Part shown: in pieces, positions 3,114 to 24,000 of the stretch
Numbering within the stretch: position 1 is the first letter of the stretch
Layout: each line of letters opens with the position of its first letter
DNA from: Allomuricauda sp. d1
GTDB lineage: Bacteria > Bacteroidota > Bacteroidia > Flavobacteriales > Flavobacteriaceae
DNA: 24,000 nucleotides
Assembly: GCF_039592695.1 (NCBI RefSeq)
Contig: NZ_JBBUTK010000003.1
Location: 564,244-588,243, forward strand
Direction of reading: 5' to 3'
Made by a program: the position numbers and the translations under genes
The notes under the pieces: model-generated
Seen by the model: only the letters and a program-made list of their open reading frames with translations
Told to the model about the DNA's origin: nothing
Database searches by the model: none

Positions 3114-3317
3114 ATGCCTGTGAATCAATCATTTATTCCGATGAAAGCCAAAGAAAATGTAACCGCTGCACGAATTCTTACCGCTGCCCTACTGTTCAGT
3201 ATTGCAGTTTTGGCCTATACAGTACATAGGGAGTATTCAGAGGAAATCTCAGATCACATTGAAAAAACTGTTGTTGAGCTTTTGCCTGATATGGAGAATA
3301 GTCTGGCAAAACTATAA
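3114..3317 (+). CDS. hypothetical small single-pass membrane protein
   Basis: 67-aa ORF with one hydrophobic helix (ARILTAALLFSIAVLAYTV). It sits in an otherwise empty gap, and no family is recognised. Confidence 0.35.
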   Translation: MPVNQSFIPMKAKENVTAARILTAALLFSIAVLAYTVHREYSEEISDHIEKTVVELLPDMENSLAKL

Positions 3318-3331
3318 TCTAAACAAAAATC

Positions 3332-3353
3332 AAGCCCCACTTTCGCAGGGCTT
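3332..3353. terminator. stem-loop between the small ORF and the convergent tRNA
   Basis: AAGCCC (3332-3337) pairs with GGGCTT (3348-3353) around a 10-nt loop. It lies between two convergent transcription units and has no strong U-tract. Confidence 0.3.
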
Positions 3354-3357
3354 ATAC

Positions 3358-3434
3358 TGGTGGTCCCACCTGGGCTCGAACCAGGGACCCCTTGATTATG
3401 AGTCAAGTGCTCTAACCAGCTGAGCTATAGGACC
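3358..3434 (-). tRNA. tRNA with CAT anticodon: elongator tRNA-Met or lysidine-modified tRNA-Ile2, not an initiator
   Basis: The reverse complement reads GGTCCTA-TA-GCTC-AGCTGGTTA-GAGC-A-CTTGA-CTCATAA-TCAAG-GGGTC-CCTGG-TTCGAGC-CCAGG-TGGGACC-A-CCA. This gives a full cloverleaf with a 7-bp acceptor stem (one G-U pair), a TPsiC loop TTCGAGC and an encoded CCA. Position 1-72 is paired and the anticodon stem has no GGG/CCC, which argues against an initiator. Confidence 0.9.
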
Positions 3435-3541
3435 CTGTCGCTTTAGCGACAAAACTCAAAATCCAAATCCCAAAATGAGAAATGTTTTTGAGGATGGCAA
3501 AATTAAGCTATTCTTCCGATATTTCTAATGGATTCCAATTT

Positions 3542-3970
3542 TTAAGCCCCCTCTCCTTTGGGGAGAGGGGCTTCTTGGCACAATTCCACCAACACCCCAT
3601 TTGTGGTTTTTGGATGCAAAAAAGCCACCAACTTATTGTCTGCTCCTTTTTTTGGGGTTTCGTTCAATATGGTGAACCCTTCCCCTTTTAATCTTTTGAT
3701 TTCACCCACAATATCATCCACAGCAAAGGCAACATGGTGTATGCCCTGCCCCTTTTTCTCCAAAAATTTTGCAATGGGGCTATCGGGGTTGGTCGCTTCC
3801 AGCAGTTCGATCTTATTGGGGCCATTTTTGAAAAAAGAGGTGCGTACCCCTTCGCTGGCCACTTCTTCTATTTTGTAATGGGGCCTGCCCAACAATTTTT
3901 CGAACAGATTGTTTGAGGCTTCCAAATCATTCACGGCAATACCGATGTGCTCTATTTTCTTCATTTGCAT
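3542..3970 (-). CDS. mce: methylmalonyl-CoA epimerase (VOC/glyoxalase-fold)
   Basis: MKKIEHIGIAVNDLEASNNLFEKLLG...GIHHVAFAVDDI...LHPKTTNGVLVELCQ is the typical epimerase sequence. The start is probably the third codon (ATG at 3964). The last 9 codons (APLPKGEGA) are encoded by a G/C hairpin. Confidence 0.8.
   Translation of the reverse strand: MQMKKIEHIGIAVNDLEASNNLFEKLLGRPHYKIEEVASEGVRTSFFKNGPNKIELLEATNPDSPIAKFLEKKGQGIHHVAFAVDDIVGEIKRLKGEGFTILNETPKKGADNKLVAFLHPKTTNGVLVELCQEAPLPKGEGA
3544..3573. repeat. G/C-rich palindromic hairpin (AAGCCCCCTCTCC-TTTGG-GGAGAGGGGCTT) overlapping the 3' end of mce
   Basis: CTCTCC (3551-3556) pairs with GGAGAG (3562-3567). The stem extends through CCC/GGG and AAG/CTT with one bulged C. 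It is probably a terminator or REP-like element. Confidence 0.6.
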
Positions 3971-6701: not shown

Positions 6702-9119
6702 TCATTGATTTTCAAGTCGTTCACGTTCTTTCTTTTCAATGGTCCGCTCGTTGTCTTCGAGTCTGAAATTGCCGAAGTTATAGGTGAACCCAAACCTGAC
6801 GAACTGGGTCTCAGGCTGTGAAAAATAGAAATTGTCTTGGTTCAGGTATTGAGAGGTGTAGGTGCCGTTTGCTTTGCCCAAAAGGTCCTCTGCAGCAATG
6901 GATATTACGGCGCGGTTGTTCCAAAACGATTTTCTGAGGCCAAGCGTCAGATTCGTGGTAGGTGATTGTACGTACGAACCGAAGAGATATTTTGAAAAAT
7001 GGGTGAACGTGACCTCTCCTGTAAAACTTCCATCTTCTGAAAGAGTGAGGTAATTGGCCAAGTATACGTAAAAGCCCTCAATGCTATTAGTCGCGGGGAT
7101 GTCGCCACTCTCCACTGCCAAAAAAGTTTCATCCTCGTGAAAAATAGAAGTATAGGCGTACAAAAACCAAGGATTGGCAATACTCTTGCTCAATGTAAAG
7201 TCAATGCCGTATGATGTGCTTTCCAAAACATTTTGCTTCAACTGTCGCAGCACCAACAAATTGTTGTCTTGAAATACCAAGTCGCTGATGTAGTTGCCAT
7301 TATCGCGATAATACAGATCAAAGAAAAACTCGTTGTTCAGGGTATAGTTGAGGTTGAAGTTATTGGTGAAGTTGGGCTGTAACCTTGGGTTACCGTCCTC
7401 AAAATCATTTTCGTTATAGAAAAATCGAAACGGATTCAAATCATTGTACCTTGGCCGTGCCACGCCCCTATCGTAATCAAATGAAAAGCTATGGCTTTCT
7501 GATGCCGTGAACAGCACATTCAAAGAAGGAAAAACACTCAAAAAATCTTGTGAATTGACCACGTCAAGGGTGCGTGAAATGCCTTCGGCATTGGTTTGTT
7601 CGCCCCTGACCCCGGCTTTGACCGACCATTTTTCCCAACTCTTCAAGATGCTCACATAGGCCGCATAAATCGATTCATTGTACTCAAAATCATCAGACAG
7701 TGAGCTATCGACTACATCGCTGTTGCCCAAAAAATTGGAATACAAAATGCTGTTCTGAGAATCGATAGTCGAAACTTTCAGGCCTGTCTCCAACGATGTT
7801 GTTCCAAATGGAAAGTACAAATCGGCCTGGCCGGTCAAAATTTGAATGTCTTGATTTGCATCGGTCCGAAACCCAAAGCTTCTTGAAAAACCTCCCGTTG
7901 CATCAAAATAATCTGAAAGAATGTTTTGTGTGGATGCTTTGCCATAATCGGTGTAATGCGCATTGAGCGACAATTGGGCGCCTTCTTTTTTGAATTTGTG
8001 CATATAGTTCACATCAAAAGCGAGGTTGGTGCGGTCGCGTCTTCCTGAATTGTCGGTCACAAAGGTGGAATCCAACTGGTTTTGCCCGTCGAGTATTACA
8101 GCGTCCAGATTTCTTCGCCATTCTTGATCTGGATTAAAAGACAGGTTTGATGTCAGATTCAGGCTGTTTCTACCGTCAATATCATAATCAGCTATAACTG
8201 TAGCGGTATGGATCTGCGAATCGGTAATCTGTTCATCATCTGTCGACCATCTTGAAAAAACATCGTTGCTGTCATTGATAAAATTGATGCCCTTGTCGAC
8301 CTGTAGAGACTCTTTTTTTGGATTGAAAGAATAGTTGCCAAAAAGGCTCAGCTTGTCTGTTTTGAAATAATGGCTCGTGCCGATGACATATTTGGGAAAT
8401 ATGGCTTGGGTAAAACTCCCGTTGACACTGCCCTTGTAGCCCGGTATGATGTTCTTGCTGGTAACAATGTTCAATATCGGTCCGCCCTCGGCATCGTAGC
8501 GCGCAGGTGGGTTGGCAACCACTTCAACGGATTTGATGTTCGTTCCCGATAATCCTTCCAGTAAGTCTTTCACTTCCTGACCTGACAATTGCACTTTTCT
8601 GTCGTTTAGATATACCGTGGCCGATTGCCCCTTGATCTGAAGGTCTTCTTGATTGACAATGACCCCAGGTGTGCTTCTCAAAATATCCCAAGAACTGCCT
8701 TGTGAAACGACCGTGTTCTCGACGTTGAAGACCAATCGATCCGAAAGTCGTTCGAGGGTCGGGCGCTTTGCGGTCACCACCACTTCATCCAAAGTCTGGG
8801 CAGCTGCGGGAATGATCAATGCGCCCAGCGATATATCGTTCTTGACGTCCAAAGCCAAGGGTTTTGAAGCACGCCCCACATAACTGGCCTGCAACAGATA
8901 GAGGCTGGGGGCGATGTCTTCAAGATTAAAAATGCCCTGCTCATCAGCTGAAGTACCCTGCACAAATGTGGAATCTGTAGCGTTCAACAACAAGATATTG
9001 GCAAAAGCCACTACCTCGTTACTGTCGTCAATTACTTTGCCCTTTATGGAGAAGGTCTGGGCAGAAATGCTAGAAATGGCAAAAGCCGCTAATACGAAAC
9101 AGCGCAGCAGTGGTTTCAT
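6702..9119 (-). CDS. outer-membrane beta-barrel / TonB-dependent-receptor-like protein with N-terminal carboxypeptidase-regulatory-like domain
   Basis: Signal peptide (MKPLLRCFVLAAFAISSISAQ), a CarbopepD_reg-like segment (IKGKVIDDSNEVVAFANILL), a plug-like region (LDEVVVTAKR...VYLNDRKV) and a long beta-strand-patterned C-terminus ending FGFTYNFG... Confidence 0.75.
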   Translation of the reverse strand: MKPLLRCFVLAAFAISSISAQTFSIKGKVIDDSNEVVAFANILLLNATDSTFVQGTSADEQGIFNLEDIAPSLYLLQASYVGRASKPLALDVKNDISLGALIIPAAAQTLDEVVVTAKRPTLERLSDRLVFNVENTVVSQGSSWDILRSTPGVIVNQEDLQIKGQSATVYLNDRKVQLSGQEVKDLLEGLSGTNIKSVEVVANPPARYDAEGGPILNIVTSKNIIPGYKGSVNGSFTQAIFPKYVIGTSHYFKTDKLSLFGNYSFNPKKESLQVDKGINFINDSNDVFSRWSTDDEQITDSQIHTATVIADYDIDGRNSLNLTSNLSFNPDQEWRRNLDAVILDGQNQLDSTFVTDNSGRRDRTNLAFDVNYMHKFKKEGAQLSLNAHYTDYGKASTQNILSDYFDATGGFSRSFGFRTDANQDIQILTGQADLYFPFGTTSLETGLKVSTIDSQNSILYSNFLGNSDVVDSSLSDDFEYNESIYAAYVSILKSWEKWSVKAGVRGEQTNAEGISRTLDVVNSQDFLSVFPSLNVLFTASESHSFSFDYDRGVARPRYNDLNPFRFFYNENDFEDGNPRLQPNFTNNFNLNYTLNNEFFFDLYYRDNGNYISDLVFQDNNLLVLRQLKQNVLESTSYGIDFTLSKSIANPWFLYAYTSIFHEDETFLAVESGDIPATNSIEGFYVYLANYLTLSEDGSFTGEVTFTHFSKYLFGSYVQSPTTNLTLGLRKSFWNNRAVISIAAEDLLGKANGTYTSQYLNQDNFYFSQPETQFVRFGFTYNFGNFRLEDNERTIEKKERERLENQ

Positions 9120-17569: not shown

Positions 17570-18397
17570 GTGCCAAAAAATAAAATCATACCGTACAATC
17601 CCAAGCTAAAGGAATATGCCCGTCAATTGCGTAAAAACAGCACCTTGTCAGAGACATTGCTTTGGCAAAGCATAAAAAACAGGGCGCTTGGGGTGCAGTT
17701 TCATCGTCAAGTGCCCCTACTTGAATATATTGTCGATTTTTATTGCCATGAAATTAAACTGGCCATCGAAATAGACGGTGATTCACATGAATACCGTTAC
17801 GAACAAGATGCTAAACGTCAAGGTGAGTTGGAAAAAAGAGGGGTTGAATTCATCCGGTTTTCAGACAATACGGTTAAAAATGATATGTTCAGCGTGCTGT
17901 TGGCGTTGGAGGAAAAGCTTAAAAATCTTGTGGAAAACACCCCCCTTGATCCTAACTCAAAGGGGGGGTCAAGAATAGCTTCACCAACATCCCCCTTCCT
18001 CCCCCCTCAAGGGGGGAATAAGTTTCCAAAAAAAGAAAGGCTGAAATCACAAAAGCTTATTGAACAGGTTTTTTTGGATGGAAAGGCCGTGACCCAATTC
18101 CCCATAAAACTTATCTATCTCAAACATGGGCTGATAGCGTCGCCCACCGTACAGGCCGGTTTTGTCGCCCCAAAGAAAAACTTTAAAAGTGCCGTCAAGC
18201 GCAACCGTATCAAACGCCTGCTCAGAGAGACGTACCGCCTCAATAAGCATACCCTTTTTAACAACATAGAGGGAAATTATGCGTTGATGATTTTATATCT
18301 TGGGAAGGAGTTGCCACAGTACAAGGCCATAGAGGAAAAAATGGTGGCCGTGTTGGGCGCATTCATAAAAAAAGTCTCAAATGAAGAACGTACGTAA
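17570..18397 (+). CDS. rnpA: single 275-codon ORF: N-terminal DUF559 (Vsr-like endonuclease-fold) domain fused in frame to the RNase P protein component
   Basis: Residues 1-~120 (IPYNPKLKEYARQLRKNSTLSETLLW...YIVDFYCHEIKLAIEIDGDSH...GVEFIRFSDNTV) are typical DUF559. From ~18020 onward (FPKKERLKSQKLIEQVF...FKSAVKRNRIKRLLRE) the sequence is typical RnpA. There is no stop codon between the two parts and no ATG at the usual RnpA start. The only in-frame alternative start nearby is GTG at 17930. Confidence 0.75.
   Translation: MPKNKIIPYNPKLKEYARQLRKNSTLSETLLWQSIKNRALGVQFHRQVPLLEYIVDFYCHEIKLAIEIDGDSHEYRYEQDAKRQGELEKRGVEFIRFSDNTVKNDMFSVLLALEEKLKNLVENTPLDPNSKGGSRIASPTSPFLPPQGGNKFPKKERLKSQKLIEQVFLDGKAVTQFPIKLIYLKHGLIASPTVQAGFVAPKKNFKSAVKRNRIKRLLRETYRLNKHTLFNNIEGNYALMILYLGKELPQYKAIEEKMVAVLGAFIKKVSNEERT
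17940..18016. repeat. G/C palindromes on the right flank of the DUF559 domain: CCCCCCTTGA-TCCTAAC-TCAAAGGGGGGG and CCCCCC-TCAA-GGGGGG
   Basis: Hairpins at 17940-17968 and 18001-18016. They lie inside the ORF and encode the linker TPLDPNSKGG...LPPQGG. Confidence 0.6.
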
Positions 18398-20003
18398 GAA
18401 AATAATCGTTTCCGTTTTTGCGGTGTCAATGTTGGTGGTCGGAAGCAGTTTTAAGAGCGATTTCTTTGAAATTGCAAAACAGATTGAAATTTTCACCACC
18501 CTGTTCAAAGAGCTCAATATGAACTATGTTGACGAGACGAATCCCGCAGAATTGATGGATTCTGCCATCAAAAACATGCTCAATGAGCTGGACCCCTACA
18601 CCCGCTTCTTGAACGAGCAAGATGTTGAGGCGTATAAAATCAACAATGCCGGCGAGTACTCAGGCATAGGGGCTTTGGTGCGTTCTTTTGATGACCGGTT
18701 GCTCATCATTGAGGCCTACAAAGACTATCCCGCCGACAAAGCGGGGCTCAAGGCAGGTGATGAAATTGTGAAGATTGGCGATATTGAGGTAAAAGATTTT
18801 CAGGACAACGCCAGCGAGCTGCTGAAGGGGGCCAATGACAGCGAGATTGAAATCGCCTACAAAAGACAGGGGCAAACCAAAACCGCAACCATCAAGAGAG
18901 CTGGGGTCGAGGTCGATGCCGTGCCTTTTTATGACATGGTCGATGACAAAACAGGGTATGTCGTGCTGTCTAAATTCAACCGAAAGGCATCAAGCCAAAC
19001 AAAGTCTGCCATTCAAGACTTAAAGGGCAAGGGTGCCGAACGATTGATACTTGACTTAAGGGGCAATCCCGGGGGGCTGCTTTCCGAAGCCATCAACGTC
19101 ACCAATCTGTTCGTGCCCAAAGGGGAGCTCATCGTGACCACAAAATCCAAGGTCAAAAAATTCAACCAAGAATACAAAACGAAAAACCAGCCCGAAGATA
19201 CTGATATTCCGCTTGTGGTGTTAATAGATGGCAGCAGTGCCTCGGCCAGTGAAATCGTTTCCGGGGGGCTTCAAGACCTCGACCGTGCAGTCATCATGGG
19301 CGCCCGCAGTTTTGGCAAGGGCTTGGTGCAGCGACCTTTGAAATTGACCTACGGCACACAGCTGAAGGTCACCATTTCAAGATATTACACCCCATCTGGA
19401 AGGTGCATCCAGTCTTTGGACTACTGGAACAGGGATGAAGACGGCAAAGCGGTCAGAAATACGGTATACAACAATTTCGCCACCCGAAATGGTCGCAAAG
19501 TACAAGATGGTGGCGGGGTGATGCCCGATATTGAGATTGCTTCCATCAAATCGAATGCTTTGATTGAAAGTCTTGAAAGAAACAATATCATCTTTGATTT
19601 TGCAACTTCCTTTTTCTACAAAAACGATTTTTCTTCGGTGGCAGATTTTAGTTTTTCCGCAGCTGACTACAATGATTTCAAAGGTTTTGCCAAAACCCAA
19701 GATTTCAGCCTAGAGACCCAGTCAGAACAACTACTGGAAGAGGCCATGAACAATGAAGAAGGGGTCTTGGGACCAACCGTGCAGGCCAAGTACAAAGACT
19801 TGCTGTTGGCCATCGGCCAGGGCAAGATCTCATCGTTGGATACGTACCAGACCGAAATACAAAAAAAGTTGGAAGATGAACTCATCAAACGCTATTTTTA
19901 CCGCGATGGCCTTTATGAATACTATCTTTCGAACGATGATGCCATTTTGACGGCAAAGACCCTATTGGCCGACAACGACAAGTACCTCGGTATTTTACAG
20001 TAA
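18381..20003 (+). CDS. S41-family C-terminal processing peptidase (PDZ domain-containing)
   Basis: PDZ segment (GIGALV...AGLKAGDEIVKIGD) plus the S41 motifs DLRGNPGGLL, SASASEIV and FGKGLVQ. Overlaps the rnpA ORF end by 17 nt. Confidence 0.88.
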   Translation: MKNVRKKIIVSVFAVSMLVVGSSFKSDFFEIAKQIEIFTTLFKELNMNYVDETNPAELMDSAIKNMLNELDPYTRFLNEQDVEAYKINNAGEYSGIGALVRSFDDRLLIIEAYKDYPADKAGLKAGDEIVKIGDIEVKDFQDNASELLKGANDSEIEIAYKRQGQTKTATIKRAGVEVDAVPFYDMVDDKTGYVVLSKFNRKASSQTKSAIQDLKGKGAERLILDLRGNPGGLLSEAINVTNLFVPKGELIVTTKSKVKKFNQEYKTKNQPEDTDIPLVVLIDGSSASASEIVSGGLQDLDRAVIMGARSFGKGLVQRPLKLTYGTQLKVTISRYYTPSGRCIQSLDYWNRDEDGKAVRNTVYNNFATRNGRKVQDGGGVMPDIEIASIKSNALIESLERNNIIFDFATSFFYKNDFSSVADFSFSAADYNDFKGFAKTQDFSLETQSEQLLEEAMNNEEGVLGPTVQAKYKDLLLAIGQGKISSLDTYQTEIQKKLEDELIKRYFYRDGLYEYYLSNDDAILTAKTLLADNDKYLGILQ

Positions 20004-20016
20004 TCAAACTTATTCG

Positions 20017-21084
20017 CTACAACGCGTCTAAAGGACTGGTGATCTTTGAAAGGCTTCTGGGGGTGACCTTGGTGTACACCTGGGTCGTTTTTATAGAGTT
20101 ATGCCCCAACAATTCTTGAATAAAGCGCATATCGGCCCCAGATTCCAGCAAATGGGTGGCATAGCTGTGGCGAAGGCCGTGAATGCCGATAGTTTTATGA
20201 ACACCCGCCTTTCTCATGGCCGTTTTAAAGACATTTTGCACACTGACCTTGGCATATTGACCCCCATATTGCCCTTCCAACAGATAATTCTGAGGACGGT
20301 ACTCTAGGTAATACCTTCTCAATAGCGGTAAAAGACTTACGGGAAGCGGTACATACCTGTCCTTTTTTCCTTTGGCACCTCGAATGTGCACCATCATACG
20401 CTCACTGTCGATGTCACCAATCTTCAGGTTTACCACTTCTGACACCCGTAGCCCCATGCCATAGGCCAGTTGTAGGGCCACAAGATGTTTTATGTTTGAT
20501 GTTACCGAGAGTATTCTCTTGACCTCATTCTTGCTCAGTGCCTTTGGCAGCACTTGGGGTTTTTTGGGCCTGGGAATGTCAAAAAACATTTTTGGCCGAT
20601 GCAGCACCTGTTCATAATAAAACTTAATGGCATTGATTTTACCATTAAGTTTTCGTTCAGCCATCTGCTCTTTTTGCACACAATACAGAAAATAGTCTTT
20701 TAGCCGCTTGGGGGTCATTTTTTCAACAGGAAAATCTTTTAAAAGCAGTAGCAGATGGTAGAACTCGCTTAAATATTGTTTGATGGTGTTCTGACTGTAC
20801 TGTTTTAGTTTCAATTGTTCATGCATTGAAACATACGCTTGGCGATTGACTTGGTTCACTTTTGACAGTTTTGAACCGATTGTGGGTTTGGGCCCAAGTT
20901 GAAGTGCCTTTCGCACGCTAGGCAAGTCTGGCAGGTACCATGCTTTTTTGGTCTTGCTCCATTTTGCAGAAGGAAATCTTGACCTCAACGCCTCTTGCAG
21001 ATTTTTATCAAACACAAAGCGAACCTGAATGATCGGTCGACCTCGATGCTGGCCAAAGGAGAAGTGATATTTTGAAAAATCCAC
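20017..21084 (-). CDS. tyrosine-type site-specific recombinase (XerC/D-like catalytic domain with a Bacteroidota-type N-terminal domain); not a canonical IntI
   Basis: Catalytic residues are present: GLRVSE (Arg I), HGLRHSYATHLL (His-x-x-Arg) and LLGHNSIKTTQVYTKV (His/Tyr). There is a SAM-like core-binding domain (TIKQYLSEFYHLL). The N-terminus HRGRPIIQVRFVFD...KWSKTKKAWYLP is seen in many Bacteroidota integrases. GTG start at 21084. The spacing between GAKGKKDR and HGLRHS is too short to hold the IntI-specific additional domain. Confidence 0.9.
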   Translation of the reverse strand: MDFSKYHFSFGQHRGRPIIQVRFVFDKNLQEALRSRFPSAKWSKTKKAWYLPDLPSVRKALQLGPKPTIGSKLSKVNQVNRQAYVSMHEQLKLKQYSQNTIKQYLSEFYHLLLLLKDFPVEKMTPKRLKDYFLYCVQKEQMAERKLNGKINAIKFYYEQVLHRPKMFFDIPRPKKPQVLPKALSKNEVKRILSVTSNIKHLVALQLAYGMGLRVSEVVNLKIGDIDSERMMVHIRGAKGKKDRYVPLPVSLLPLLRRYYLEYRPQNYLLEGQYGGQYAKVSVQNVFKTAMRKAGVHKTIGIHGLRHSYATHLLESGADMRFIQELLGHNSIKTTQVYTKVTPRSLSKITSPLDAL

Positions 21085-21235
21085 TTAGGTGTTTTGTATA
21101 TCTTCTTTTCAAAGATATATGTTTTATATACAAAATGCCCAACACAATGATGTATTTATATTTTGCGTTATTATTGCGATACAAAAGAATATAAGTACTT
21201 TAGGGTGGGTTATATAAAACTACACCTATTTACGT
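21085..21235. promoter_or_regulatory. attI-like / divergent promoter region with nested palindromes
   Basis: TTTTGTATAT (21092-21101) pairs with ATATACAAAA (21126-21135), with inner ATATCTT (21098-21104) / AAGATAT (21112-21118). There is an imperfect inverted repeat GTATTTATATTTTG (21152-21165) / CAAAAGAATATAAGTAC (21182-21198). The region ends at the first G|TTAGGC junction. Confidence 0.5.
21110..21117 (-). promoter_or_regulatory. candidate -7 box (TATCTTTG on the minus strand) for the recombinase gene
   Basis: Exact TAnnTTTG match on the minus strand, 25 nt upstream of the GTG start at 21084, embedded in the palindrome. Motif match only. Confidence 0.3.
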
Positions 21236-21247
21236 GTTAGGCAACAT

Positions 21248-21985
21248 ATGAGACAACTTAACATTCACGAATTGGAAAGCAAAACGCACGACTATTTTTT
21301 GGACGTGGAATATGCCCAGCATAATGACGTGAAAAATAAGTTAACTCAACTAATGAATTTTTTGAGCAGCCAAGATATATCCAAGAACATTCTAGAGAGG
21401 ATAAAAGAAGATTACAATGATTTATATCAAAAACTTGACCCCCTTAATGACCAATCCCCAGAAAGAACCAAAAGAGATATTATAGAACAACTTTTAACAC
21501 CAGACCACCAAGGAGCCTTTGGATATTTTCTCATTGAAAAGAAGTTCAAAGAGCCAAGAAAAGTTTCTCAACATTATATCGATTTATCCTGGAAGTGGTA
21601 CAGTCGAGGACATAATTATAATGAACAACAAGATGGTTTTAATTTCTATTTTTTAAAACCTTTTAAAGAGTTATTCGACTGGTATTTATCTGAAAGTCAA
21701 ACCGAAAAGGAATCGGACTTTTTTTCATATAAAAGTCAAGAAAAAGTCTTTGAAAAATTAGATAACCTTGAGGAAATGCTAACAAAACAAGGATTTGGAC
21801 AAGGGATAATCTTTAATGAAATTGAGGAACTAAAGGAATTGACTAAAAAGCTGAATAAAAAAAATTGGAGTGAAATCATTAAAGGTAAGTTCGTGGACTT
21901 AGCCTTAGGAGGTATTCTAACAAAAGAAGCTGCAATCAAAGCAATTGAATTCCTAACTGGAACGGAACTGAATTTATTAAAATAA
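21248..21985 (+). CDS. cassette 1 ORF: hypothetical protein, 245 aa, no family recognised
   Basis: Clean ATG-to-TAA ORF that starts 12 nt after the junction. It is AT-rich, rich in Lys, Glu and Asn, and predicted soluble and helical. No motifs I can name. Confidence 0.7.
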   Translation: MRQLNIHELESKTHDYFLDVEYAQHNDVKNKLTQLMNFLSSQDISKNILERIKEDYNDLYQKLDPLNDQSPERTKRDIIEQLLTPDHQGAFGYFLIEKKFKEPRKVSQHYIDLSWKWYSRGHNYNEQQDGFNFYFLKPFKELFDWYLSESQTEKESDFFSYKSQEKVFEKLDNLEEMLTKQGFGQGIIFNEIEELKELTKKLNKKNWSEIIKGKFVDLALGGILTKEAAIKAIEFLTGTELNLLK

Positions 21986-21989
21986 ATAC

Positions 21990-22120
21990 GTTGCCTAACA
22001 ATGGCTATAATTCAGCTTTGCCCTCTGCCCTACTTGAAAATCTATATCTTTAAATCGGCTGGATTTCGAAGCTGGAAAATCCCGTTGGGATTTCCCAAGC
22101 CGAAATCATAGCCGAGACCG
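21990..22120 (+). repeat. attC-like recombination site of cassette 1 (~131 bp imperfect hairpin)
   Basis: GTTGCCTAAC (21990-21999) is the reverse complement of GTTAGGCAAC (21236-21245). GGCTATAATTCAGCTT (22003-22018) pairs imperfectly with AAGCCGAAATCATAGCC (22097-22113). An inner hairpin lies at 22074-22095. The site ends GAGACCG|TT. Confidence 0.7.
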
Positions 22121-22143
22121 TTGTGGGTAATGTTGACCAACCA

Positions 22144-22980
22144 ATGGAAATAAACGAACAAGCAAAATATATTGACCATTTTTTAAGAGAATTATATAAT
22201 TCATCTTTTGCTACATCATTAGCAATGGGAATTGAAATGAAACAATTACCAAGTCAACAGAACAAAGAGAAATTTAAGACATTAGAATACATCTTGGAAG
22301 AATTAGAATTGGTCGAATTTGTGCTTGGAAGAGATAATTCAACTTTGAGCGGACAATGTGAATATCACATAAGTGGGAAAGGTCGTGAGCTGGTCGAAAG
22401 AAACGAATCAAGTATTGGATTACTTTTAGAAAGAGAAATTCAAAATGTGACAAAAAATAATCCTTTGTTTGACGACAAAGAATGGGATAAATATTATGAC
22501 CGACTTCTTGAAAAAAGAGCTGACCAAGCAGATTTTTTTCTTGATATGATAATTGAGAAGAAACTCATAAATCTTGACAAATCTACATTGAGAAAATATT
22601 TTAAAGAATGGTTCAAAGAAAATCAAGAATTCGATTTACAAATAAAGAATGGAGATTTGGCAATAGAAGATGGTGATTTACAAACTGTACCTGACTTCAG
22701 CGAAGAAAACATACCTGAATTTATTAAATGGTTTCAGGAAAAAGGAAATGAATTTATGGACTTTCTAAAAGAAAAAGGGTTAAGTGTTCAAGAAAACTCA
22801 AAAGAACAGATTATTAACCAAGGAAATCTTATAATAAACAAGGATTCTAAAATTAAAACTCAATCCATTGGAGAAGAAAAAGAACAAAAAGAATCGAATT
22901 GGAATAAAACAAACGTTATCATAGCTTTAGTAGTTGGAATAGCGACAATTATAGGTGTGATTTGGCAAATAATAGGATAA
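22144..22980 (+). CDS. cassette 2 ORF: hypothetical tail-anchored membrane protein, ~278 aa
   Basis: The ORF is open from GTG 22123, which lies inside the junction core, but ATG 22144 (MEINEQAKY) is more plausible. There is a single C-terminal TM helix, NVIIALVVGIATIIGVIWQIIG. AT-rich, and no family recognised. Confidence 0.7.
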   Translation: MEINEQAKYIDHFLRELYNSSFATSLAMGIEMKQLPSQQNKEKFKTLEYILEELELVEFVLGRDNSTLSGQCEYHISGKGRELVERNESSIGLLLEREIQNVTKNNPLFDDKEWDKYYDRLLEKRADQADFFLDMIIEKKLINLDKSTLRKYFKEWFKENQEFDLQIKNGDLAIEDGDLQTVPDFSEENIPEFIKWFQEKGNEFMDFLKEKGLSVQENSKEQIINQGNLIINKDSKIKTQSIGEEKEQKESNWNKTNVIIALVVGIATIIGVIWQIIG

Positions 22981-22987
22981 AAAACAC

Positions 22988-23117
22988 TACCCACAACAAC
23001 GTGTATAGCTCATTGCGGCTCTAATGGTTATTTGAATCTATTTTCCTACAAACAATCTTTACATTCTTCGGAATAAAACGTACCTTAAATCCCGCAACGA
23101 AGCCATACACAATACCG
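22988..23117 (+). repeat. attC-like recombination site of cassette 2 (~130 bp imperfect hairpin)
   Basis: TACCCACAAC (22988-22997) is the reverse complement of GTTGTGGGTA (22120-22129). GTGTATAGCTCATTGCGG (23001-23018) pairs with CCGCAACGAAGCCATACAC (23092-23110). An inner ATTC-TTCG-GAAT hairpin lies at 23063-23074. The 3-nt versus 6-nt internal loop is the same as in site 1. Confidence 0.7.
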
Positions 23118-23470
23118 ATGATGTCGAATACGCCTGCGGCGTACTTTTGCTGCACTGCTGGCGCAGTCACCGCACCAAAAGCGAGTCGACATCATCGCCG
23201 CGCTATGCCAGATTGCAAAGACCGCAGGATAAGGGACATTCTTGACAATATCGCCGCAACGGCTCAACTACTCGACATATCGGGACGCTATATGCAATCT
23301 GGTCGACTGATTTTATTCCCAATACCGCAAAATCCACAAGGAAACGTCCGCTGGTGCGGACTCCTTGGCGAACAATGCCGCAGGGTAAACCCGATGCCAA
23401 TCCCAGCGGCATTGTTGAAAGGATTTTGCTATATTTCCATAAAATCCGCCGGACTTCACATAGCGCGGCG
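23118..23470 (+). other. cassette 3: GC-rich, repeat-dense unit without a convincing ORF (possible ncRNA, decayed cassette or stack of recombination-site remnants)
   Basis: It is bounded by junctions G|ATGATGTCGA (23117) and GCGCGGCG|TTGTGG (23470). Several internal inverted and direct repeats are listed in the findings. The composition is clearly more GC-rich than both neighbours. Confidence 0.55.
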
Positions 23471-23487
23471 TTGTGGTTAATTTTCCA

Positions 23488-24000
23488 ATGAAAGGACTGC
23501 TTAAAACAATTTCGGAAAAAGCTATTGAACTTCAGGATTTTTCATATTCCGAAGAGCAAATCCAGCATAAATGGCTAGGGACAAAACCCGTAACGGAAAA
23601 TGAACTTGAATCAATTGAAAAAAGGTTGGGAATTCAATTACCAGAGGACTATATCAATTTTCTGAAAATAACCAATGGATTTTCAGCTCCAAACCTTGTG
23701 GAACCGACTTTTGAGCCTTTTTGGAAAATTGACTTTCTTAAAGAAGTGGACAACTTCATAATCGAAGTTTGGAAGAAAAATGGACTTACCGAAATTGGAA
23801 AAAATCTTGAAAGCAGCATTATAGTCGGAGGAATTGAAGAAGAACAATACTTTTTACTAATTCCACCCGAAAAGGCAAATGACAACTGGAAATATTGGAA
23901 ATTCAGTTCATGGCAACCAGGGGAGGACGAATATGAAAACCTTCAGGACTATTTTGAAAAGGTTCTGGAATTTACACTTGACGAACTAGAACATAAATAA
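23488..24000 (+). CDS. cassette 4 ORF: SMI1/KNR4 (SUKH-1) family protein, the family used as immunity proteins of polymorphic toxin systems
   Basis: ELESIEKRLGIQLPEDYINFLKITNGF is the hallmark SMI1_KNR4 N-terminal motif, and the size (~170 aa) fits. ATG at 23488, 18 nt after the junction. The TAA stop occupies 23998-24000. No toxin gene is adjacent. Confidence 0.85.
   Translation: MKGLLKTISEKAIELQDFSYSEEQIQHKWLGTKPVTENELESIEKRLGIQLPEDYINFLKITNGFSAPNLVEPTFEPFWKIDFLKEVDNFIIEVWKKNGLTEIGKNLESSIIVGGIEEEQYFLLIPPEKANDNWKYWKFSSWQPGEDEYENLQDYFEKVLEFTLDELEHK

Follow-up and report, generated by a model that had tools for sequence, protein, structure and literature searches.

An integron-like cassette array with folded attC-like sites beside a tyrosine recombinase without the IntI additional domain in Allomuricauda sp. 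d1

Classical integrons, such as the class 1 elements and the chromosomal integron of Vibrio cholerae, place an integrase gene divergent from an array of mostly promoterless single-gene cassettes that share one orientation. The array is headed by an attI site, recombination occurs at a G|TT crossover within AAC/GTT cores, the final bases of a cassette's own site stand at its 5' end, and the attC sites, about 55-200 nt long, comprise R and L boxes separated by a spacer that is unpaired or irregular, together with a variable tip, the bottom strand being favoured. These features are likewise found in the locus described here, down to cargo such as a SUKH immunity protein. The locus occupies the last 4 kb of a 24,000-nt stretch of the genome of the marine flavobacterium Allomuricauda sp. 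d1 (contig NZ_JBBUTK010000003.1, positions 564,244 to 588,243; this whole stretch is called the window), in which a minus-strand tyrosine recombinase gene is followed by plus-strand open reading frames (ORFs) with long imperfect palindromes between them (Table 1). The region is likely to be the end nearest the integrase of an integron-type platform for gene capture that works without I2, the helix of the additional domain that integron surveys use to define the integrase IntI (PMC4889954).

The current view links the hallmark of integrons, the recombination of folded single-stranded sites, to the gain of I2 and to the docking of extrahelical bases (PMC7790495, PMC2727003). Escudero et al. proposed that integrases shifted from double- to single-strand recombination by acquiring I2 (PMC7790495), and Bouvier et al. 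counted extrahelical bases in the L box among the elements shared by every known attC substrate (PMC2727003). Compared with classical integrons, the integrase of the present locus lacks the additional domain with its I2 helix and carries an extra N-terminal domain, while most of the sites have no extrahelical bases. The strand bias instead takes the form of 4-5 G.T wobbles together with a 3-nt bulge, the spacers are conserved in sequence (AAY, RARACC), and few sites keep the full RYYYAAC/GTTRRRY boxes. We class the system as one that would work like an integron and is not a member of the IntI-defined family.

Besides integrons, several Xer-type systems share part of these traits. In CTXphi and other integrative mobile elements exploiting Xer (IMEXs), the Xer-type enzymes XerC/XerD, also devoid of I2, act on a forked single-stranded hairpin, exchange one strand and leave the junction to be resolved by replication, and Escudero et al. 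discuss such recombination of folded phage DNA as a possible precursor state (PMC7790495). CTXphi differs in that a whole phage genome enters the chromosomal dif site through the housekeeping XerCD, with no array, cassettes or attI served by a dedicated recombinase. Archaeal XerA and bacterial XerC/XerD at dif have the same domain order and no insertion; compared with them, the enzyme described here has the extra N-terminal domain, scores below the family cut-offs and faces a variable array instead of a 28-bp dif site. Moreover, the duplex Xer/dif site is crossed over in its 6-8 bp centre, whereas here the crossover lies outside the spacer of the attI repeat and the cassette sites are hairpins of about 120 nt. 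The pdif modules of Acinetobacter plasmids are also discrete gene modules bounded by sites for Xer-type recombinases. Those sites are short 28-bp duplexes in alternating orientation, in contrast to the long strand-asymmetric hairpins in one orientation, with a dedicated recombinase, observed in Allomuricauda. The available part of Smyshlyaev et al. 2021 describes the insertion as "not fully conserved" in the integron-like subgroup of simple tyrosine recombinases, and that part ties no cassette array or folded site to the insertion-less members (PMC8138268). The recombinase of this study, which an array does adjoin, probably belongs to those members. A search of the openly accessible full-text literature returned no description of these arrays.

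Cassette boundaries, attI and recurrence in relatives

The two sites of the window that follow cassettes 1 and 2 have the same plan. Site 1 reads as an outer arm R'' (GTTGCCTAAC, 21990-21999), AAT and an inner arm L'' (GGCTAT, 22003-22008), then, after the variable centre, the inner arm L' (ATAGCC, 22108-22113), GAGACC (22114-22119) and G (22120). Site 2 reads as R'' (TACCCACAAC, 22988-22997), AAC and GTGTAT (23001-23006), then ATACAC (23105-23110), AATACC (23111-23116) and G (23117). The exact reverse complement of R'' of site 1 is found at 21236-21245 (GTTAGGCAAC) and that of site 2 at 22120-22129 (GTTGTGGGTA), so that cassette 1, starting with TTAGGCAAC, and cassette 2, starting with TTGTGGGTA, each complement R'' of their own 3' site. 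This complementarity places the crossover at G|TT, with units that run from TT to G, as in integrons. After site 2 the boundary is G|AT and not G|TT, since the unit that comes next (23118-23470) is a cassette of an unusual kind, described below. The same relation was observed in relatives, in which the seven bases before the AAC of one site and the seven after the preceding GTT were complementary in at least six of seven positions in 41 of 61 consecutive pairs, compared to 3/91 for R'' and R' within a single site and 3% for random pairs. At least eight consecutive exact cassettes were found in Maribacter halichondriae.

When 37 loci were aligned from the recombinase gene to the first cassette, conservation (...TATTTACGTG) was seen to stop exactly at the G and the sequences to diverge from TT on, the edge reading ...ACGTG|TT in a segment that abuts the integrase gene. 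Judging from this alignment, the conserved segment upstream of the first cassette is the attI site, the putative common insertion point of the system. It contains an inverted repeat (ATTTTGTATATCA ... TGATATACAAAAT) at 21085-21142, directly upstream of the recombinase start codon and at the same position in 36 related loci, which may be an operator or an accessory site for the recombinase. A second conserved inverted repeat of attI, with a 6-bp spacer (CGTAAATA-CAGACT-TATTTACG), ends at the crossover, which falls outside the spacer. Additionally, a TAnnTTTG-like box (TACTTTAG, 21196-21203) faces the cassettes about 33 nt upstream of the crossover, and TAnnTT(T/A)G is kept in relatives. This box resembles the Bacteroidetes -7 promoter consensus and may be the equivalent of the integron promoter Pc.

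Orthologues of the recombinase with 60-88% identity occur in about 46 species of Flavobacteriaceae, including Maribacter, Winogradskyella, Croceivirga and Hyunsoonleella, and in these loci the array lies on the same side of the recombinase gene. Exact chaining of cassettes and a geometry scan with controls, which replaced a noisier scan for 6-bp stems and chaining with one mismatch, were used to follow the sites; the scan pattern was AAC, 2-4 nt and a 6-bp stem, then 4-7 nt and G(T/A)T. On the array side and in cassette orientation, 113 matches were obtained (5.72 per 10 kb), against 1.42 per 10 kb on the opposite strand and 0.55-0.60 per 10 kb on the control side, that is, the other side of the gene. 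The spacers measured 3 and 6 nt in 78/113 matches and 3 and 5 nt in 13/113. Sites were present in 22 of the 24 related Flavobacteriaceae loci having at least 2 kb on the array side. The genes neighbouring the recombinase in the window (an S41 peptidase gene among others) do not adjoin it in relatives, and a fixed chromosomal position is therefore not supported.

The family consensus was N7-AAC / A-A-Y / G-K-N-T-A-W-A ... C-A-T-A-N-N-C / R-A-R-A-C-C / G|TT. The full RYYYAAC and GTTRRRY cores were strictly present in 6-7 of 75 sites, the consensus being closer to YAYAAC / GTTR, and the core was GTT in 65/75 and GAT in 9/75. One attC type (GTATAACCGCAATTACGGCGGATTCGAC ... CCCGTAACTGACGGTTATAC) is near-identical in ten loci from several genera (L005, L009, L010, L018, L019, L022, L025, L033, L041 and L044), which suggests the exchange of cassettes between genera or a common source of cassettes. 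Contigs that end within 500 nt of the recombinase start, on its upstream side, were seen in 15 of the 46 related loci (L004, L006, L007, L015, L017, L023, L024, L026, L030, L031, L032, L038, L042, L045 and L046), and metagenome contigs of a relative with 49% identity (L081, L083) end likewise. Such ends would be expected if recurring attC types interrupt short-read assembly, and they mean that the arrays are under-sampled in draft genomes.

Beyond the orthologues of Flavobacteriaceae, four arrays were examined (L040, L051, L052 and L082). Cassettes with G|TT boundaries adjoin the recombinase of a Bacteroidetes metagenome-assembled genome (MAG) with 53% identity and that of the relative with 49% identity. 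In a MAG of Oscillospiraceae from termite gut (L052:9995-14855), at least four exact G|TT cassettes follow, in the same orientation, a recombinase fragment of 201 aa that lacks the insertion and has 60% identity to residues 157-355 of the query, in an "inverted integrase" layout; the sites of these cassettes likewise have a 3' spacer longer by 3 nt and an A.C position. Given this array, the system reaches beyond Bacteroidota.

Folding and strand asymmetry of the sites

The pairing of the sites was supported at positions that had played no part in their selection. At L-box positions 8-10, Watson-Crick pairs were found in 196 of 228 cases, compared to 93.6 +/- 6.2 with shuffled partners, and several pair types occurred at each position. 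Among 64 distinct bottom-strand mini-sites, 95.0% of the cells pair, against 76.9% after shuffling and 32-50% in slid registers, with a covariation score of 0.456 compared to 0.123. The arms were equal through 17 positions in 46/76 sites; one extra base was present in 26/76, and where such a single unpaired base occurs it lies on the L' arm.

The mismatches that remain are strongly asymmetric between strands. Over the first 17 L-box positions of the top strand, the cells that are not Watson-Crick were A.C 160 times and G.T twice, with A.C at position 7 in 58/76 and at position 12 in 68/76 sites. The three spacer positions beside the R box are A.C in 72/75, A.C in 57/75 and T-A or C.A in 54/75 sites when read on the top strand, and G.T in 72/75, G.T in 57/75 and T-A or G.T in 54/75 on the bottom strand, where a 3-nt bulge remains; Watson-Crick pairing between the spacers did not exceed 0.23. 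Because the top-strand mismatches are A.C (160:2), it is the bottom strand that would fold, a 3-nt bulge and G.T wobbles being part of its structure. This strand was also the more stable one in 68/76 sites (p = 7e-13). In silico, therefore, the bottom strand is the predicted recombinogenic strand.

An earlier note, made on the letters of the window, had described two sites with a 10-bp outer stem after rejoining each cassette, a spacer of 3 nt opposite one of 6 nt, a second stem and a variable centre, and this geometry was found at both sites, together with the small hairpins at 22074-22095 and 23063-23074. When both strands were folded, the bottom strand was the more stable at each site: -27.8 kcal/mol (z = -5.0) against -24.1 (z = -4.1) for the rejoined site 1, and -23.6 kcal/mol (z = -4.9) against -17.8 (z = -3.9) for site 2. 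The note had named beforehand the absence of this geometry from further sites of relatives as a finding that would speak against it; the geometry recurs in dozens of sites, drawn from over 20 genomes, and the compensatory changes looked for in homologous sites exist, as the covariation scores indicate. The proposal that the sites behave like attC sites recognised as folded single strands agrees with their conserved geometry, covarying pairs and strand-specific pairing. The 3x6 internal loop holds as a view of the top strand, but on the bottom strand the spacer partly pairs and a 3-nt bulge is left. The idea that geometry is conserved while sequence is free is not supported, or is overstated, considering that boxes are conserved across the family and that a few types of sequence recur in several genera.

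The recombinase and competing explanations

The recombinase matches a protein of Allomuricauda sp. d1 with 100% identity and contains the Pfam domains PF13495 (SAM-like) and PF00589 (Phage_integrase), preceded by an extra N-terminal domain of about 60 residues. The best NCBIfam model was NF040815 (XerA_Arch/integron integrase), with 205 bits against a cut-off of 220. The IntI models TIGR02249 (197 bits, 5e-58; cut-off 265) and NF011946 (118 bits; cut-off 435) also scored below their cut-offs, and the XerC (178 bits; cut-off 335) and XerD (174 bits; cut-off 330) models far below theirs. Alignment with IntI1, a query sequence confirmed as 100% identical to annotated intI1 genes, gave 32% identity and a single gap of 44 residues over IntI1 ~212-255, the additional I2 domain, and alignment with VchIntIA skips residues 211-246 of the latter. 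The additional domain of IntI (the I2 helix, near patch III) is thus missing by both alignments. The absence of I2 from the enzyme goes together with the absence of extrahelical bases from most of the sites.

The spacing from KDR to HxLRH is 66 residues, as in Xer proteins, and the sequence match to the XerA structure 4a8e (148 bits) was the best or near-best. The C-terminal SPLDAL is shared with IntI1. The catalytic residues R213, K238, H302, R305, H328 and Y337 are invariant in 35 orthologues. In the AlphaFold model (predicted local distance difference test, pLDDT, of 84), the top Foldseek match was VchIntIA (2a3v, E = 9e-17), followed by XerA, and residues 1-60 formed a confident beta-beta-alpha-beta-beta-alpha domain. 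The wider family comprises 2,944 clusters at 50% identity with E < 1e-30; the best 150 of these align without the IntI insertion and most end in a SPLD-like motif, with 64-66 residues between KDR and HxLRH in the 46 of the 150 in which this could be measured. One metagenome relative (P0074) had been annotated automatically as "Integron integrase". A tblastn search of plasmids at 1e-15 did not recover intI1, presumably since the 44-aa gap splits the alignment. The placement of this clade relative to IntI and Xer rests on model scores and the fold search, and the clade may be a sister of IntI or a separate Xer-like branch. The earlier note had spoken of a non-IntI recombinase, which is borne out by the missing additional domain and by the score below the TIGR02249 cut-off, and has to be qualified in that the best fold match is VchIntIA and the top NCBIfam models are those of XerA/integron integrase and of IntI.

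The preference for an integron-type platform without I2 has to be weighed against other origins of the array. The main rival is a relic array, that is, a cluster of attC sites lacking an integron-integrase (CALIN), made by a canonical IntI that is encoded elsewhere or was lost, with an unrelated Xer-like or mobile-element enzyme lying next to it. Such clusters are common (PMC4889954, PMC9024848), just four arrays were examined beyond the orthologues in a very large recombinase family (2,944 clusters), and the sequences covered were those of the loci rather than of whole genomes. We nevertheless regard a relic as unlikely, given that the arrangement of gene, attI and array is kept in 22/24 informative loci of many genera despite non-syntenic flanks, that attI conservation abuts the gene and stops at the crossover, and that the site geometry departs from that of classical attC in step with the missing I2. 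Moreover, one copy of a cassette may lie at attI and an identical one farther into that array, an indication of reinsertion at this attI, and the survey with IntegronFinder 2.0 listed just a single genome of Bacteroidetes with a complete integron (PMC9024848). An ordinary integron whose IntI went unrecognised would account for the layout, the AAC/GTT cores and the G|TT crossover, as well as for the TIGR02249 match at 5e-58, the best fold match with 2a3v and the automatic annotation of P0074. It is very improbable, however, because the 44-residue gap falls exactly over the IntI1 additional domain, VchIntIA 211-246 is skipped, the TIGR02249 score of 197 is below 265, the KDR-to-HxLRH spacing of 66 residues is Xer-like, most sites have no extrahelical bases and RYYYAAC and GTTRRRY are strict in 6-7/75.

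Conventional double-stranded recombination at short cores, as by Xer at dif or at the pdif sites of Acinetobacter, would make the palindromes incidental and would suit both a Xer-like enzyme without I2 and an attI inverted repeat with a 6-bp spacer. We give it little credence, since the stems covary, the attI crossover lies outside the spacer of that repeat, and R'' and R' are about 120 bp apart in the duplex and form no core site unless the DNA folds; besides, an excess of A.C over G.T of 160:2 would be meaningless in a duplex, where both are ordinary base pairs. That the palindromes are transcription terminators or repetitive extragenic palindromic (REP)-like repeats unrelated to recombination, as their positions just after ORFs, their imperfect symmetry and their recurring families might suggest, is hardly tenable. 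The sense (top) strand folds worse, opposite to what a terminator needs, no T-run follows the palindromes, the sites are restricted to one side and one orientation beside the recombinase, and the complementarity between the start and end of each cassette and the sharp attI boundary would be left unexplained. Some observations weigh against the integron-type platform itself. Catalysis at these sites by the adjacent recombinase is suggested by analogy with integrons and rests on adjacency; as loci rather than whole genomes were covered, a canonical intI elsewhere is possible. Only three complete cassettes lie in the window, the G|AT boundary and fully paired site of the ATGATG cassette do not fit the same recognition rules, and no Pfam family and no fold relative in the PDB were found for the N-terminal domain (1-60).

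If the integron-type platform without I2 is accepted, cassettes would be circular units cut and joined between G and TT, and the recombination partner would be the folded bottom strand of the imperfect palindrome of 60-200 nt that ends each cassette. This fold would consist of an R-box helix (AAC/GTT plus seven variable pairs), two or three wobble pairs, the 3-nt bulge, a helix of about 17 bp with two conserved G.T wobbles, and a variable tip. As the wobble positions are A.C mismatches on the top strand, strand choice may be imposed in this way, and by analogy with integrons a single strand would be exchanged and the junction resolved by replication. Because the enzyme has no I2 and most sites have no extrahelical bases, recognition must use other features; the bulge, the wobbles, the conserved spacers AAY and RARACC and perhaps the clade-specific N-terminal domain could take the place of I2.

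The earlier note had offered convergence or an unrecognised branch as the explanation for the resemblance. Convergence is less favoured, since divergence from a common stock is more economical when the fold match, the AAC/GTT cores, the crossover and the attI layout are all those of integrons, while the notion of an undescribed version without I2 is retained. On balance we lean towards a second integron lineage that never had or has lost I2, that is widely distributed among Flavobacteriaceae and extends to other Bacteroidota and to at least one MAG of Firmicutes, and that recombines bottom-strand hairpins without extrahelical bases, strand choice being made by G.T wobbles and a 3-nt bulge. If such a lineage exists, I2 is no prerequisite for cassette-type hairpin recombination, and the reported near-absence of integrons from Bacteroidota is an artefact of surveys based on IntI and attC models. 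A natural platform of this kind would test whether I2 is needed for hairpin recombination or only against exchange of the second strand, and would offer an intermediate or an alternative solution for the transition from Xer to IntI. It would also bring to light a pool of cassettes in abundant marine bacteria which standard tools would miss or, at best, count as clusters without an integrase, and supply a new pair of site and enzyme for cassette shuffling in synthetic biology.

Window layout and the ATGATG cassette

The GC content is about 0.32 over the cassette ORFs and about 0.44 in the rest of the window. The products of the ORFs of cassettes 1 and 2 matched no Pfam, NCBIfam or PHROG family, and a search of 19500-24000 against Rfam, a collection that does not include the attC covariance model of IntegronFinder, returned no match. 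The ORF of cassette 4 (23473 onward) ends with TAA at 23998-24000, the last bases of the window, so that its own 3' site lies beyond; it encodes a SUKH-1/SMI1-KNR4 protein (Pfam PF09346, 8e-12), a family typical of immunity proteins for polymorphic toxins.

Table 1. Features of the cassette array in the window and units of the ATGATG type in related loci
Feature	Coordinates	Strand	Description
Tyrosine recombinase	20017..21084	-	355 aa, GTG start
attI-like region	21085..21236	.	Between the recombinase gene and the first cassette; crossover after G21236
Cassette 1	21237..22120	+	884 bp; one ORF 21248-21985 (245 aa, no family), then its own attC
attC-like site 1	21990..22120	-	R'', AAT, L'' ... 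L', GAGACC, G; minus (bottom) strand predicted to fold
Cassette 2	22121..23117	+	997 bp; one ORF 22123-22980 (285 aa, no family), then its own attC
attC-like site 2	22988..23117	-	R'', AAC, L'' ... L', AATACC, G; next two bases AT, not TT
ORF-less ATGATG cassette	23118..23470	+	GC-rich, highly structured, GAT core, fully paired attC-like site
Cassette 4 start (TTGTGGTTA...)	23471..24000	+	Boundary from a direct repeat and comparison with ATGATG units of relatives
ATGATG units in relatives	L003:1493-1774, L009:850-1129, L013:832-1111, L019:1891-2169, L033:1853-2124		
Paired ATGATG copies	L022:9576-9850 + 7837-8112, L039:9574-9844 + 7019-7289, L044:9572-9849 + 3283-3560		

The third unit of the array, the ATGATG cassette, is 353 nt long, with a GC content of 0.52 and no conserved ORF. 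With the window included, 12 loci have such a unit in their arrays; in the 11 related loci it measures 271-282 nt and keeps the same sequence plan, and its boundaries are G|ATGRTG and ...CATAGCCCTGCG|TT (...CG|TT) without exception. The unit lies directly at attI in 8/36 loci, and three arrays contain two identical copies of it, with divergence setting in exactly behind CG|TT. Its 3' site has an L box like that of the family (GGCTATG / CATAGCC), but with complementary spacers and a GAT core. RNAalifold predicted a multi-helix structure of 48 pairs for these units, 21 of them with compensatory changes, and the unit is a candidate for a novel structured element, of RNA or of DNA, that may serve the platform. 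It had no Rfam match, and a related class-2 element gave matches at noise level only. A group II intron, an insertion sequence (IS) or a miniature inverted-repeat transposable element (MITE) was rejected as an identity for 23118-23470, on the basis of the missing Rfam, Pfam and PHROG matches and of the cassette-type boundaries G|AT ... CG|TT. A 120-aa ORF was likewise discarded, as it matched no Pfam or PHROG family and the indels between copies are not multiples of three.

Elsewhere in the window, a single ORF at 17570-18397 contains a DUF559 endonuclease-like domain (residues 12-116) followed by an RNase P protein domain (152-260), and may represent a DUF559/RNase P fusion or two genes read through by the program that listed the ORFs.

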